Of a stretch of 64,000 bases of DNA, positions 4,967 to 9,837 are shown in pieces. The position numbers were made by a program, and so were the translations under genes. Under the pieces are notes generated by a model that was not told the DNA's origin, did not search any database, and worked only from the letters and a program-made list of their open reading frames with translations. Numbering within the stretch: the stretch's first letter is position 1; each line of letters begins with the position of its first letter. Location: positions 96,826 to 160,825 of the forward strand of contig CAZIDF010000001.1 of assembly GCA_964538085.1 (NCBI GenBank). Reading direction: 5' to 3'. The stretch is from an uncultured Eubacteriales bacterium (GTDB lineage: Bacteria; Acidobacteriota; Aminicenantia; Aminicenantales; Aminicenantaceae).

Positions 4967-7300
4967 ATGTCGGTCGCAATGAAGGCTCTCAAACTGATCT
5001 CCTATTTTGTTTTACTTGGAATATTGATTCTCGCTATCCAGTTCCAAGTATTCGCTCAAGAACCTGTGCCACGAACTTCATACTTGGAATACGCCAAAAA
5101 AGCGGCGGACCACACATGGCAAAATTACGATAGCCTGATTCAGCGCTGGAAAGAGGGATTCGATCCTGAAAGTGTGTTCGGCTACCGTCCTCCAGGGGGC
5201 CTGCTGGAGATGGCTGTCATTTATACCTATCTGTATGAGCAGGAAAAGAATCCGGAACATGCTATCCGTGCCAAAAAAATCCTTCTCACCTATCCCGACT
5301 ACAGAGCCGCTTATCCCGAATGGGCGAAGAAAAAACGCCCGGACTATGAGGATGGAATCCCTATGCTCCCGGATTTTTTTACCGTGATGCGTTATCTCAG
5401 GGCTTATGATGCTCTGAAAAAAACCGATTTTTTAGATGCAAGCGAAAACCGGATGATCCAGGAAAACATCGCCCAAAGCATGACTTACGTCCTTCGAACC
5501 CAGGAATGGGGGCCGATGAACCGAACAGCCCTAAGGGCGGAATCCCTGGCGTGGGCTGTTCGGACAATGCCCGACCATCCGGACACCAAAAAATGGGAGA
5601 TGCAGCGCAGGGCTCTGGGAGACGACAACTGGGGGAACTGGCAGATCGAAGATGCCACCATTTATCACGGGGTTTGGTTATACGCTTTGTTGGGGTATGC
5701 GGACGCGATGGGCAAATTAGGTGAGCTCCTGGATACACCAGAAATGTTTTATTATGCCCAATATTTTCTCCACTTGATGTGCCCCGCAGGCATGATCCCG
5801 GATTTCGGGGATGCCAACTGGATGGCCAATTGGCCACGTTTTTTGGTCTTTTTCGAGGCCGCAGCCAATCACTACCAGGATCCCCGGCTAAAATGGGCGG
5901 CCAGCACGATCGGGCGTAAATTCATCGACTTCGACGATCCTAAAAATATAGGGCTCGCTTACAATTTTTTGGACTGCTATCTCTGGGGTGGAGATGGTAT
6001 CCCTGTCCAGCCACCGGATTCTATGTCCGAAGAGGTGATGGAGGATGTGCAGGGGAAAAAGATAGTATTTCGAAACGGCTGGGATCCGGAAGCCTCCTAT
6101 CTTTTATTGAATTACAGGGATGAGGGTGACGGGGGTTTGAATTTCCGGGACTATTTACGGGATACCATTCCAGTGGAAGAAGAAAAAATGACCCACGGGC
6201 ACGCGGATGAAAACAGCATAGTTTTACTGATGTCCGGAGGCTCAGTTCTCCTCCACGATGGAGGCTACCGTGATTATATGCCCAGCGGTCCTTTCGGTGC
6301 CTATCGACAGGATTATTTTCACAACCGGTTATGTGTGAGGCCTGAAAAAATCTGGATGGGCCAGAATCAGGGGGAATTCCGGTACAGCATACGGGATGCT
6401 ATCCCTGGGCAGGGCGTTCTTGATTTCCTGCACAATGCTGGCTCCTATCGCCGGGTTCGCACACAGAAGGTGGACTTTCTGAGTCTGGATGATTTCGATT
6501 ACAGCCGCACGCGGCTGACGGACGAAAGCATGGGCTACACGTGGGACAGAGTCATCGCCTATGTCAAAGATGCGGGGATGTTTGTCGTATTCGACATCTT
6601 CAAATCCCTGAAGGAAGAATATTTCACTCTGGCCAATCTGTGGCACACCCGCAAAATATTAGCTCAAGGGAATCATTGGTATGACACGGTTTATGACAGA
6701 ATCCAAAACGACGAACTTCCACTCGATCAACACCTGCTGATTTTATTCCCGGAAACCCATTTCAGGTTGGAGGGGATTGAACAGGAGAAACGGCATTACC
6801 AGCCGGAGATCATGATCCACCAAACCACGGCTCAACATTTCGAACTGGGTGAAACTGTTGGTTTTATCACTGTCCTCATTCCCCTCGGGCGAGATAAAAA
6901 CCCTGAAAAATGGCTGGATAAGATCCGAGCTATCCAAATAGATCCTGACCGGGCAGGACTTGGCGTTGAGATCGACTCCGGAGACCGAAGCATCGTCATC
7001 GGGGTGAAAAACGATCTGCGCATGGATATGGCCAGGGACTGGCGCCGCCCGAGGTACACCTATGAAGCGGGAAAAATAGGATTTGGGGAATTTGAAACCA
7101 ACGGCGATTTCCTGTTCGCTTCCCTTAAAAATTCGAAGCTAGCCTACACGATCATCAACCTGACAAAGGCTTTTTTCAAGGATAAACCATTATTCGAAGC
7201 CAAGTCCTCTTTTTTTGGCCTGGCATTCGATGCTAGCCCGTATACAGGGGGACTGGGAAAAATTCGATACTGGAGAGACGAAGTCGTCATAAACAGATGA
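4967..7300 (+). CDS. secreted heparinase II/III-like / polysaccharide-lyase-family protein
   Basis: 777 aa with N-terminal signal/TM segment. Alpha-helical N-terminal half and beta-rich C-terminal half as in heparinase II/III and alginate-lyase-like proteins. Family call is from overall resemblance only. Confidence 0.4.
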   Translation: MSVAMKALKLISYFVLLGILILAIQFQVFAQEPVPRTSYLEYAKKAADHTWQNYDSLIQRWKEGFDPESVFGYRPPGGLLEMAVIYTYLYEQEKNPEHAIRAKKILLTYPDYRAAYPEWAKKKRPDYEDGIPMLPDFFTVMRYLRAYDALKKTDFLDASENRMIQENIAQSMTYVLRTQEWGPMNRTALRAESLAWAVRTMPDHPDTKKWEMQRRALGDDNWGNWQIEDATIYHGVWLYALLGYADAMGKLGELLDTPEMFYYAQYFLHLMCPAGMIPDFGDANWMANWPRFLVFFEAAANHYQDPRLKWAASTIGRKFIDFDDPKNIGLAYNFLDCYLWGGDGIPVQPPDSMSEEVMEDVQGKKIVFRNGWDPEASYLLLNYRDEGDGGLNFRDYLRDTIPVEEEKMTHGHADENSIVLLMSGGSVLLHDGGYRDYMPSGPFGAYRQDYFHNRLCVRPEKIWMGQNQGEFRYSIRDAIPGQGVLDFLHNAGSYRRVRTQKVDFLSLDDFDYSRTRLTDESMGYTWDRVIAYVKDAGMFVVFDIFKSLKEEYFTLANLWHTRKILAQGNHWYDTVYDRIQNDELPLDQHLLILFPETHFRLEGIEQEKRHYQPEIMIHQTTAQHFELGETVGFITVLIPLGRDKNPEKWLDKIRAIQIDPDRAGLGVEIDSGDRSIVIGVKNDLRMDMARDWRRPRYTYEAGKIGFGEFETNGDFLFASLKNSKLAYTIINLTKAFFKDKPLFEAKSSFFGLAFDASPYTGGLGKIRYWRDEVVINR

Positions 7301-7358: not shown

Positions 7359-7403
7359 TTGACAAATCTAATTATTTTGATTATTCTGATTATTCTGAAT
7401 AAT
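7359..7403 (+). promoter_or_regulatory. sigma-70-like promoter with overlapping operator palindrome upstream of the AbrB-arsM operon
   Basis: TTGACA (7359-7364), 17-nt spacer, TATTCT (7382-7387). A 15-bp perfect palindrome ATTATTCTGAATAAT (7389-7403), preceded by a tandem TGATTATTC repeat, overlaps the -10/+1. AGGAGG SD at 7414-7419; ATG at 7430. Confidence 0.4.
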
Positions 7404-7429
7404 ATGATTTATCAGGAGGGCCACACAAG

Positions 7430-7720
7430 ATGACTCAAGAAGAAAAGTCAGAATTTGGCTGTGAATCCGGCAGAAAAAACTGGGGATGTTGTACAGTAGA
7501 GTCTGTGGTCAGCATCGATGAGCGGGGTCAAATGGTTCTTCCCAAGGAGATTCGGGAAAAGTCAAAAATCTGTGCTGGGGATAAATTGGTCGTGATCTCG
7601 ATTGAAAAGGATGGCAAGTTTTGCTGTCTGTCCTTGATCAAGGCCCAAGATTTCGAAGGGATGGTCAAAAACCTGTTATCTCCGATAATGGCAGATACAA
7701 AAACGAAAAGGAGCGTCTGA
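7430..7720 (+). CDS. AbrB/SpoVT-family DNA-binding protein with vicinal cysteine pairs
   Basis: 96 aa. Swapped-hairpin core VVSIDERGQMVLPKEIREKSKICAGDKLVV is flanked by CESGRKNWGCC and KFCCLSL. The stop TGA overlaps the arsM ATG (tgATG). Confidence 0.65.
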   Translation: MTQEEKSEFGCESGRKNWGCCTVESVVSIDERGQMVLPKEIREKSKICAGDKLVVISIEKDGKFCCLSLIKAQDFEGMVKNLLSPIMADTKTKRSV

Positions 7721-8574
7721 TGAAACAGAACCCAAAATTAAGCGATAAAAAAATCAAAGGGATCGTCAAGGAACGCTATTCACAAATTGCCAAGCATAAC
7801 TCCTCCTGTTGCGATCAAACAGAACGATACTGCGGACCGTCAAACATGGCGGAACACATTGGCAAAGTCATCGGATACAGTGAACTGGAACTCGGTTCAG
7901 TCCCAGAAAACGCCAATCTTGGACTCGGGTGTGGCAATCCTGTAGCTCTCGCCTCTCTTCAAAAAGGCGAAACGGTTCTGGATCTAGGCTCTGGCGCGGG
8001 TTTCGACTGCTTTCTCGCTGCCAAAAGAGTCGGCAAAAACGGGAAAGTGATTGGCGTGGACATGACGTTTGATATGGTAGAGAAAGCCAGAGAAAATGCT
8101 CAAAAAGGCCGGTATGAAAACGTGGAGTTCTTGTTGGGAGAGATCGAGAATATACCTTTGGAGCCGGAATCCGTGGATGTGATAATCTCCAATTGCGTGA
8201 TAAATCTTTCGCCGGACAAAAAAAAAGTTTTCCAGGAAACATTTAGAGTTCTCAAACCTGGAGGCAGATTAATGATTTCAGACTTGGTCCTGTTGAAGGA
8301 CCTGCCAGAATCTGTCAAAGAATCTGTCCAGGCTTACACTGGCTGTATCGCAGGTGCCATGAGAAAAGAAGAATACATAAAACTCATCCAGGACGCCGGT
8401 TTTCAGCATATCGATGTTCAAGGGGAAGAATTCTTCTCTCTCGGTTTGGAATCAGAAGATGCTATGGCAAAAGCTATCGTTGAGGAGACGAAGATCCCCC
8501 TTGAACAACTCAAAGAAATTGCCAGTTCTGTGGTGAGTATTAAGATAGGTGCGGCAAAACCGATGTGCGGATAA
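7720..8574 (+). CDS. arsM: arsenite S-adenosylmethionine methyltransferase
   Basis: SAM motif [11 protein letters not shown]. ArsM-conserved cysteines: N-terminal CC...[15 protein letters not shown] and YTGCIAGA. In-frame ATG at 7720, coupled to the upstream ORF. Confidence 0.8.
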
Positions 8575-8586
8575 GACCCCTTCCCC

Positions 8587-9837
8587 CTAGAACCGGAACA
8601 GGTTGTTACCCAGTTTTTTCTTCTCCTCGTTCCATCTTTTCACCAAATAGGGTTTTTCCTCTTCGAACACCCTGACGATCTTTTCAAAATATTCCTCGCA
8701 CTCCTTGATATCCATGTGAATGGTCTTATTCACGAAGGAGAGGATCCGGGAATGGTAAAACGGGATCATGGACTCTACGATCATTTGCTTCGGGATCTGG
8801 TTGTTACGGTAGGCAATGGCGAAATTGAACAGGATACGTGCCCAGAGATCGCTGCTGTAATAGAATTTTTCTTTGGGGATATTTTTTATTTTTTTGATTT
8901 CGGTAAATTCTTCATTGGGAAGGATATTTTTCCATACTTCCCCATACCGATCAAAACCTTGGACAAAACTAACGTAGAGGGCATCTGTATCCACAGAAAC
9001 TGGTGGAGGAGTCTCCATGGCTCCCAACCCGAATCCAAAAATGCTGCTCGGCCAGCTTTCTGATGTGTCTTTCCAGAAATATTCGAAGTCAATCATCAGC
9101 TCGAAAAAGGTCATGATCACCTGCTTGAACATCGGCCCCAGGTGTTTTGCCGGATCCTTGGCTCGATGAGATTTTGGGGAACCCAAGAAGGTTTGACAGA
9201 CCTTGAACCTGCGGGCGATGGCGACAGTGGTCATCCAGATATCGATCCCGAAATGAGCCACGTTTTCTGTCCAGGTTTTTTCGGACAGGAATGCTTGAGC
9301 CAGCCGTCTTGAAAAACCGAAATCTCCCCCGATGGGTTGTCTAACTCTAAGCCCGAAAAGGGTTCTCAAAAGCGGATAAGCGATGTGATTGGTGATGGAA
9401 CCATCGTATTTGTGGCGGATATAGATGGGAGTCACATAGTTGAAGCCTGCAAACAGGGGCTCCCCCAGGTATTGGATCCACTGGGGCGTTATGCTCTGAA
9501 GATCGGCATCCACGACAACGGCAGCTTTAGCCTCGAGCTCGACGACGGCCTCGAATAAATTCCTCAGGTTGTTCCCCTTTCCTCGAATATCCCCCGTTGT
9601 CGAAATGTAAATCTTGGGAACATCGGTGGGAGTGTTCAAAAAGGCTGTTTTTGTCCCATCCGGCGAATTGTTGTCAATATTGATGATAACGGATTTTTTA
9701 TCCGGAAAAAACTTGCACAATCCTTGACTGGCCATCTTGGTGGGATGAGAGATGGAATCAGCTTCATTAAAGGAAGGTATCCCCACGACAAAGTCGGCTT
9801 TTTTTACATGTTCAGGATTTTCGATAATCACATCCAT
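8587..9837 (-). CDS. GT-A fold glycosyltransferase, GT78-like (mannosylglycerate/glucosylglycerate synthase-like), paralog A
   Basis: VVGIPSFNE N-terminus and DADLQSITPQWI (DxD) motif. RQPIGGDFGFSRR and FGIDIWMTT blocks resemble those I recall from Rhodothermus mannosylglycerate synthase. Paralog at 41688..42926. Confidence 0.5.
   Translation of the reverse strand: MDVIIENPEHVKKADFVVGIPSFNEADSISHPTKMASQGLCKFFPDKKSVIINIDNNSPDGTKTAFLNTPTDVPKIYISTTGDIRGKGNNLRNLFEAVVELEAKAAVVVDADLQSITPQWIQYLGEPLFAGFNYVTPIYIRHKYDGSITNHIAYPLLRTLFGLRVRQPIGGDFGFSRRLAQAFLSEKTWTENVAHFGIDIWMTTVAIARRFKVCQTFLGSPKSHRAKDPAKHLGPMFKQVIMTFFELMIDFEYFWKDTSESWPSSIFGFGLGAMETPPPVSVDTDALYVSFVQGFDRYGEVWKNILPNEEFTEIKKIKNIPKEKFYYSSDLWARILFNFAIAYRNNQIPKQMIVESMIPFYHSRILSFVNKTIHMDIKECEEYFEKIVRVFEEEKPYLVKRWNEEKKKLGNNLFRF

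Follow-up and report, generated by a model that had tools for sequence, protein, structure and literature searches.

A cysteine-rich AbrB-fold protein of the HgcC family, encoded with arsM, as a candidate metal(loid)-responsive autorepressor

In a 64-kb window (the whole stretch of 64,000 nucleotides that was analysed, from contig CAZIDF010000001.1 of an uncultured Aminicenantaceae bacterium), a gene for a cysteine-rich protein of 96 amino acids (aa) lies directly upstream of arsM, and its product matches the family catalogued as HgcC. Comparison of sequences across many loci leads us to propose, with moderate confidence, that this protein would be an AbrB-fold autorepressor, occluding its own promoter until a thiophilic metal(loid) binds to its cysteines. 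The model is built on an AbrB-type fold with an invariant loop-helix segment, on an array of repeats that covers the core promoter of the gene in both Bacteria and Archaea, and on cysteines that bracket the putative DNA-binding barrel. Arsenic-resistance operons are textbook ArsR/SmtB regulons, and the original prediction for this locus, made from the letters of the window, was of an arsenite-responsive regulator of a non-ArsR type. The features of the locus are as follows, in window positions.

7359-7364, + strand: -35 hexamer TTGACA (promoter scan; 17-nt spacer to TATTCT, 10/12 matches)
7367-7416, no strand assigned: putative operator of six wwTCWGAww-like units in a 9-nt register, covering the -10, the likely +1 and the 5′ untranslated region up to the ribosome-binding site
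7378-7395: tandem TGATTATTC repeat, part of the array region
7382-7387, + strand: -10 hexamer TATTCT (promoter scan), overlapped by the operator array
7389-7403, no strand assigned: perfect palindrome ATTATTCTGAATAAT, that is unit 4 of the array with its flanks
7415-7419, + strand: Shine-Dalgarno sequence GGAGG, 10 nt 5′ of the ATG at 7430
7430-7720, + strand: hgcC-like gene, for the 96-aa cysteine-rich AbrB/SpoVT/MazE-fold protein (PF04014, NF040962, TIGR01439, AF2 model)
7460-7462, + strand: C11 codon, as read from the open reading frame (ORF)
7487-7492, + strand: codons of the vicinal pair C20-C21 (NWGCCTVES context), conserved in homologues
7622-7627, + strand: codons of the vicinal pair C65-C66 (KFCCLSL context), conserved in homologues
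7720-8574, + strand: arsM, for a 284-aa arsenite S-adenosylmethionine (SAM) methyltransferase (NF008823, alignment to solved ArsM)

The last base of the TGA stop codon of the hgcC-like gene (7718-7720) is also the first base of the arsM start codon, a TGATG arrangement that amounts to translational coupling. This overlap had been read correctly in the original prediction, and the downstream gene is a canonical arsM: its product scores 356 bits on the NCBIfam arsenite methyltransferase model NF008823, against a cut-off of 263, and the cysteines of its GCGNP, SNCVINL and GCIAGA motifs align to the solved ArsM structures 5evj and 4fr0. We conclude that the hgcC-like gene and arsM are a self-contained two-gene operon in the window.

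The fold of the 96-aa protein was examined by profile searches and by modelling. It matched Pfam PF04014 (MazE_antitoxin/AbrB) with 28.2 bits, for a cut-off of 24.7, and the 'AbrB family' regulator model TIGR01439 with 36.3 bits, for a cut-off of 28.3. An AF2 model computed with 99 homologues gave predicted local distance difference test (pLDDT) values of 79-88 in the core. It begins with a disordered, cysteine-bearing tail (about aa 1-15); aa 20-72 make up the swapped-hairpin core and aa 72-93 a long helix at the C-terminus, and the topology is the strand-strand-helix-strand-strand one of the solved AbrB/SpoVT/MazE members. When this model was compared with the PDB using Foldseek, the first 6 matches, and 14 of the first 15, were SpoVT, AbrB-N, Sso7c4-type or C68/C56 domains. 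Their E-values (0.016-0.4) are weak because the domain is only about 50 aa long. The closest solved relative is the SpoVT N-domain (profile E = 1.3e-4, Foldseek probability 1.0). By profile and model, then, the protein is a member of the AbrB/SpoVT/MazE fold, whose DNA-binding homodimer with interleaved hairpins it may also form, and the AbrB/SpoVT core that had been assigned to this ORF is borne out by both lines of analysis. More distant models scored low: PrlF reached 13.1 bits for a cut-off of 32, and the MraZ models 16 bits for cut-offs of 98-162. Pfam and NCBIfam scans at E ≤ 1 gave no match to PF01022, the winged helix-turn-helix of ArsR/SmtB, and no ArsD domain was detected in the Pfam and NCBIfam scans either. 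The protein is therefore, as had been said of it, without an ArsR-type domain.

On profile evidence it also belongs, as a regular member, to a family that has been catalogued but not characterised, NCBIfam NF040962 ('HgcAB-associated protein HgcC', near_HgcAB). The score was 117.3 bits for a cut-off of 70, and the match is to the full profile, positions 1-69 of 70 aligning with aa 20-88. All 99 aligned homologues match both NF040962 and TIGR01439. Members that precede hgcA score 122-126 bits, about the same as the 117 of the window protein, so that the two gene contexts are not separated by this model. The family entry carries no described function, ligand or DNA site. Its name implies an hgcA or hgcB neighbour, whereas the partner in the window is arsM and neither hgcA nor hgcB was found in the 64 kb: the HgcA cap-helix motif was absent from all six frames, and tblastn with two HgcA queries and one HgcB query gave no match better than E = 0.07. 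A hidden hgcAB locus in the window was rejected on these two results.

Homologues were collected from a large protein collection (968 clusters at E ≤ 1e-3) and from a scan with one genome per species, in which relatives were found in at least 543 genomes. The carriers listed are anaerobes of both domains. The closest relatives, with 71-77% identity, come from Aminicenantes, which points to this as the probable lineage of the window; other bacterial carriers are Dehalococcoidia, Nitrospirota, Clostridia and Actinomycetota, and the archaeal ones are Methanotrichaceae, Methanoperedens, Thermoplasmatota, Asgard archaea and Bathyarchaeia. Many of these homologues are named 'antitoxin PrlF' by JGI.

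Two parts of the protein are strongly conserved among them. The first is the segment D30-E-R32-G-Q-M-V-L-P-K39-E-I-R42, invariant or nearly so in the homologue alignments, within which the putative DNA-reading residues D30, R32, G33, Q34, M35, L37, P38, K39 and R42 are all invariant. The second is the cysteines, which the homologues keep alongside a conserved DERGQMVLPKEIR motif. The closest 120 clusters retain the C65-C66 pair without exception, while 118 of them have C20 and 118 have C21; among 80 species, C66 is found in 80, C21 in 79, C65 in 78 and C20 in 70. The members that lack C20 have a CC in the N-terminal tail in its place, and every member of the 80-species set has at least 2 cysteines N-terminal to strand 1. 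Family proteins carry four to seven cysteines in 96 aa. The two vicinal pairs, noticed where they stand in the original prediction, are thus near-invariant, and they bracket the swapped-hairpin core, which is the putative DNA-binding barrel. A vicinal cysteine pair with a third thiol is the classic As(III) site of several ArsR proteins and of ArsD. Vicinal pairs are also common in Hg(II)-handling proteins; ArsD, AfArsR, MerA and HgcB provide named examples of As(III) or Hg(II) sites.

Compared to AbrB, SpoVT and Sso7c4 factors, the window protein has the fold and the G-x-hydrophobic-LPKEIR loop-helix segment in common, but it adds the two vicinal pairs around the barrel and the cysteine-bearing N-terminal tail. 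It also differs from AbrB and SpoVT in having a single long C-terminal helix and no GAF or AbrB-C domain. Finally, the DNA motif of the family is well defined and periodic, whereas the specificity of AbrB is loose.

This motif emerged when 120-140 nt upstream of the hgcC-like gene were aligned across all loci. The element found throughout the family is made of TCWGA pentamers, with the unit consensus wwTCWGAww, in a strict 9-nt register; in the window the six units are TCTAA (7367), TTTGA (7376), TCTGA (7385), TCTGA (7394), TATGA (7403) and TCAGG (7412). Successive TCWGA pentamers were spaced by 9 nt in 61 cases, by 18 in 35 and by 27 in 6, other values being isolated. Their density was 2.3 per 120 nt upstream of the gene, compared to 0.21 for a background of 5,432 windows taken from these loci. 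Of the family promoters (80 species), 85% had three or more C-W-G cores chained in register, as did 1.3% of 297 control intergenic upstream regions from the same loci; three or more exact TCWGA were present in 46% and 0% of them, respectively. Strict arrays (at least 3 exact units in 4 slots) occurred 28 times in 772 kb, all 28 at hgcC-like promoters; a single seeming exception was traced to a wrongly called start codon. Within the window, 7367-7416 was the one place to match the four-unit pattern with up to 2 mismatches, and it did so in three registers that overlap; 100 shuffled sequences gave no match. The two-unit pattern TCWGA-N4-TCWGA was found once for 0.51 expected, which is not significant; the comparative data place the array above chance. 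A second array, which would have been the sign of a regulon, was detected neither in the 64-kb window nor in the flanks of the 80 loci.

The position of the array with respect to the promoter is conserved as well. In Bacteria a TTGACA, in general a perfect one, is followed by the first core after 20-27 nt in most loci, which puts that core over the -10/+1; from there the array extends into the leader. TTGAC(A) occupies the same relative position as the window -35 in 43 bacterial family loci, and the position of the -10 relative to the array is kept in the Aminicenantes relatives (L005-L007). In archaeal loci, three units lie 5′ of an 'aaaa(g)TTTAAATA' segment, which we take to be a B recognition element (BRE) and TATA box, and one further unit lies 3′ of it; from the first core to the start of the TATA box the commonest distance is 27 nt. 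This means that the archaeal array, being 5′ of the TATA box, is not transcribed, which makes an RNA signal impossible and is consistent with an element acting at the DNA level. An RNA element in the leader was rejected on this ground and because Rfam gave nothing above threshold, the best match being the Streptococcus small RNA SpF10 (26.4 bits for a gathering score of 60) at 7362-7415 on the minus strand, on the AT-rich repeat array itself, which we judged to be due to chance. The family thus possesses what characterises the repressor class, a conserved operator-like array overlapping its own core promoter. The original prediction had seen an operator in a palindrome across the -10/+1 preceded by a tandem repeat. 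The palindrome is present and perfect, but its place is around the likely +1, immediately 3′ of the -10. The operator idea holds in that a conserved element does exist in both domains; the palindrome and the repeat are themselves fragments of the six-unit array.

The upstream regions of three loci (L015, L021 and L030) combine a bacterial TTGACA -35 with an archaeal-looking 'aaagTTTAAATAttctga' segment. These promoters hint at a recent inter-domain transfer of the promoter-operator-gene cassette.

The gene neighbourhood was then established in 80 species loci, by calling ORFs and classing the downstream gene: arsM was recognised by BLASTP with the ArsM of the window as query, and hgcA by the cap-helix motif of its product. 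Genes cut off by a contig end were checked a second time. Representatives were verified with NCBIfam models (HgcA 399-426 bits for a cut-off of 275, HgcB 126 for 99, ArsM 355-364 for 263). The outcome was as follows.

arsM directly downstream of the hgcC-like gene: 70 of 80 loci
arsM one gene further, with a nitroreductase or NnrU-like gene between: 2 of 80 loci
hgcA downstream of the hgcC-like gene: 6 of 80 loci
other downstream gene: 1 of 80 loci
untestable: 1 of 80 loci

Overall, arsM follows in 72 of the 79 testable loci, and either arsM or hgcA in 78 of 79, so that the association of homologues with arsM looked for after the original prediction is real. An hgcB-like ferredoxin gene came after hgcA in the 3 loci where one was identified. 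The estimated gap between the hgcC-like gene and arsM is short (median about 6 nt; no more than 60 nt in 65 of 71 cases). No further recurrent neighbour was found in the 80 loci, and what follows arsM is, in most loci, a gene of the opposite orientation; the pair is therefore a portable two-gene module. A larger ars operon was rejected for the same reasons, since only arsM (or hgcA) is conserved and the second gene downstream is usually on the other strand. The intervening genes are, in one locus, a nitroreductase (PF00881, L011:6500-7135) and in another an NnrU/ICMT-like membrane protein (L065:6344-7114). Elsewhere, a Flavin_Reduct gene comes after arsM (L087:3860-4387).

Because the 80-species sample is biased towards the window protein, a second scan, of metagenome contigs, was seeded with HgcA-linked members. 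Its best 80 loci comprised 48 arsM-linked, 21 hgcA-linked and 6 with another neighbour, the remaining 5 lying at contig ends; arsM was thus the partner in 48 of 75 testable loci. This independent set also confirmed the operator, the array being found in 90% of the arsM-linked and 95% of the hgcA-linked promoters. The two kinds of members are close to each other: the HgcA-linked protein of L040 is 80% identical to the ArsM-linked one of L046, and among the metagenome loci a protein encoded in front of arsM shares 81% identity with an HgcA-linked one from Nitrospirota. A division into an ArsM-type and an HgcA-type clade was rejected in view of these 80-81% identities across contexts; judged by sequence, arsM-linked and hgcA-linked proteins are phylogenetically interleaved. 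Two proteins named 'HgcAB-associated protein' by NCBI (P0076, L085:270-1403, and P0071, L087:2708-3827) are followed by ArsM-type methyltransferases, not by HgcA. The family name HgcC misdescribes many of its members.

A third context was found at L152:298-2591, also in L158 and, truncated, at L026:6001-6798. There the hgcC-like gene is followed by genes for a cysteine-rich membrane protein, a DsbD_TM protein and a DUF2703 protein. In L152 the first of these is a 219-aa membrane-anchored protein with GCTPGCGSGCNCG … DGCCKPSDNCC and no Pfam match; the second belongs to PF02683, with a weak ArsG-like match, and the third matches PF10865 with 112 bits. This context suggests a wider thiol or soft-metal regulon. 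Some genomes carry two hgcC-like copies on separate contigs, L009 and L021 in the metagenome-assembled genome (MAG) K_2_bin.77, and L026 and L072 in MAG MFD03899.bin.2.83; in one case the copies have differing downstream partners.

A literature search on HgcC, 'HgcAB-associated' or AbrB-MazE-prlF proteins with arsM or hgcA returned a single study. Zhang et al. 2023 described a 'TA-associated' prlF/abrB/mazE-like gene directly 5′ of hgcA in 14 metagenomic contigs and in 8 confirmed methylators, 6 of them archaeal, read it as an antitoxin, and proposed it as a possible co-regulator of hgcAB (PMC10349881). It is most probably of the same family as the window protein, the match being made by description and not by sequence. 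Their study makes no mention of cysteines, arsM linkage, bacterial abundance or an operator, unlike the present analysis (PMC10349881), and we found no paper reporting that linkage to arsM predominates or is interleaved with linkage to hgcAB, nor any on the conserved cysteine architecture or the cross-domain 9-nt operator. The family is therefore not wholly unknown, being catalogued as NF040962 and already proposed in a regulatory role (PMC10349881). The suggestion of a possible new regulator type, made in the original prediction, is partly supported, by the AbrB fold, the cysteine pairs, the arsM linkage and the array.

Our proposal for the mode of action is the following. The apo-protein would form an oligomer of swapped-hairpin dimers, and this oligomer would bind the TCWGA cores every 9 bp at 7367-7416. 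The bound array, lying over the -10, the transcription start and the 5′ untranslated region, would block RNA polymerase; with archaeal homologues it would block access of TBP/TFB to the BRE/TATA. A thiophilic metal(loid) would then be bound by the thiolates of C20/C21, of C65/C66 and of the N-terminal-tail cysteines. Since these cysteines bracket the barrel, such binding would be expected to distort it, so that the DNA is released and transcription of hgcC-arsM can proceed. The parts of this scheme do not have the same solidity. We are rather confident that proteins of the family bind DNA in a sequence-specific manner and regulate their own gene, and we infer repression, rather than activation, as the outcome. 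Sensing by way of the cysteines we regard as probable. That As(III) is the effector can be put forward only tentatively. In the arsM context the effector would most likely be As(III) or a methylated trivalent arsenical, given that the operon partner is ArsM and that the protein has vicinal cysteine pairs.

Several observations weigh against the scheme. The same family, with the same operator, also precedes hgcAB and the DsbD_TM/DUF2703 cluster, and the effector may therefore be broader than arsenite, As(III) being one candidate. The arsenite response proposed in the original prediction agrees with arsM synteny and cysteine conservation, but in the light of these other contexts the effector need not be arsenite. 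The period of 9 bp differs from the helical repeat of DNA, which is unexplained and has no citable precedent. The AF2 model is a monomer with a mean pLDDT of 73.7. As for DNA contacts, of AbrB R8, R15, R23 and R24, which we take to be the DNA-contact arginines, R8, R15 and R24 align with the non-basic V27, Q34 and E43 in the SpoVT alignment, and only R23 has a counterpart, R42; other invariant basic residues of the window family do lie near the aligned positions. Lastly, translational coupling and a flexible cysteine-rich tail would fit a substrate-delivery partner equally well.

Such a partner is the alternative that we take most seriously, although we consider it unlikely. The protein would be a metallochaperone: it would capture As(III), or, where the operon is hgcAB, Hg(II), and pass it on to ArsM or HgcB cysteines, and DNA binding might or might not be a second function. 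The near-invariant vicinal pairs and the disordered cysteine-bearing tail suit this function, as do the coupling and the very short gaps to an enzyme gene whose product methylates a metal(loid) and has cysteine ligands of its own (ArsM, or HgcA/HgcB, with the C-terminal CC of HgcB). There is also ArsD, initially described as a repressor, a weak one, and recognised as a chaperone afterwards, whose feeding of ArsA the proposed delivery would resemble. However, a pure chaperone leaves unexplained both the operator array that travels with the gene in Bacteria and Archaea and the invariant segment of the AbrB DNA-binding type. Moreover, no fusion to ArsM or HgcA was found in the 120 closest clusters, whose members are all of 133 aa or less, and in autoregulated operons it is usually the repressor gene that comes first. 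A dual role as chaperone and regulator, such as the original prediction also raised and as has been proposed for ArsD, is possible. The likeness to ArsD is that of a small ars-operon protein with vicinal cysteines as As(III) ligands; ArsD has a thioredoxin-like fold and an ArsA ATPase partner, and no sequence or fold similarity to the window protein.

It is improbable that the protein is instead a thiol-redox or Fe-S regulator, answering to oxidants, oxygen or sulfide through disulfides or a cluster. Four to seven cysteines in so small a protein, the anaerobic character of the carriers listed and the thiol-disulfide-type proteins (DsbD_TM, DUF2703) of the third context could be accommodated in this way. 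However, 72 of 79 and 48 of 75 testable loci are paired with arsM and most of the others with hgcA, not with redox-defence genes, and vicinal Cys-Cys pairs are awkward ligands for a single cluster, being generally regarded as typical of As(III) or Hg(II) sites.

A sensor of the methylation cycle or of its product (S-adenosylhomocysteine (SAH), SAM or methylarsenite), rather than of an inorganic metal(loid), seems more improbable still. Both main targets are methyltransferase systems, and ArsR2 of strain ND132 responds to SAH besides arsenic, but HgcA depends on a corrinoid and not on SAM, Pfam and NCBIfam scans of the 96-aa protein gave no recognisable nucleotide- or SAM-binding domain, and the feature that is conserved is the cysteines.

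The label of orphan type II antitoxin (MazE/PrlF-like), placed beside arsM by chance, which KEGG, JGI and Zhang et al. 2023 attach to these proteins and which the best Pfam match (MazE_antitoxin) and the JGI name 'antitoxin PrlF' of many homologues would favour, is effectively refuted, since the window has no adjacent toxin gene, the 80 loci have no recurrent toxin-like neighbour, arsM or hgcA follows in 78 of 79 loci, and the PrlF score of 13.1 bits is far from its cut-off of 32.

The metal(loid)-responsive autorepressor that we favour would be familiar in its function, but its fold is not known to serve in this role. In ArsR/SmtB systems, as in the present one, the regulator gene is first in the operon and co-transcribed, the targets are arsM-type ars genes and hgcAB, and sensing is by cysteine thiolates, often a vicinal pair, which is what we propose for the window protein. 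The fold (winged helix-turn-helix, PF01022) is unrelated. These systems include P. mercurii ND132, where an ArsR-like regulator upstream of hgcAB responds to arsenic. Autorepression through repeats has a parallel within the AbrB superfamily: MraZ, a protein of the dcw cluster with two AbrB-like domains, represses itself via a series of short direct repeats, the 'MraZ boxes', in its own promoter (PMC8475190). The analogy is limited to this aspect, as MraZ has a different core sequence, has no cysteine sensor and belongs to a different family.

Going one step further, the HgcC family could form an unrecognised AbrB-fold class of thiolate metal(loid) sensors, one portable cassette being used in anaerobes for arsM and hgcAB interchangeably, which we think somewhat less probable than the autorepressor itself. 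Steric occlusion, as proposed, would be what makes such a cassette usable at bacterial sigma-70 and at archaeal BRE/TATA promoters alike. The same small cysteine-rich AbrB-type protein and a definable DNA element stand at the head of both arsM and hgcAB operons, in a family present in at least 543 species genomes, and both the name HgcC and the 'antitoxin' reading miss the arsM context, which was predominant in both samples. How hgcAB is controlled, and why mercury-methylation genes adjoin arsenic genes, are open questions in mercury biogeochemistry. If the model is true, arsenic and mercury methylation genes would answer to the same intracellular signal, and it would offer a long-sought handle on the regulation of hgcAB and on its native role. 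If confirmed, it would define a new structural class of metalloregulators and provide a candidate for a compact biosensor component, for arsenic or mercury, which might work in both domains. The TCWGA core every 9 bp, the C20/21 and C65/66 pairs and the simplicity of the two-gene module give experimenters testable handles.

We finally considered the genes around the operon. Directly 5′ of it, at 4967-7300 on the plus strand, is a gene for a 777-aa protein with a probable signal peptide and no Pfam match, found in the same position in 6 related loci. Downstream, a glycosyltransferase gene at 8587-9837 on the minus strand is convergent with arsM, and the two-gene operon ends there; no intrinsic terminator was found between arsM and this gene. 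The product of the latter is GT2/MGS-like, matching PF21969 (Mannosylglycerate synthase GT) with 28 bits and showing a weak likeness to glucosyl-3-phosphoglycerate synthase. An M14 peptidase is also encoded in the flanks of the pair.

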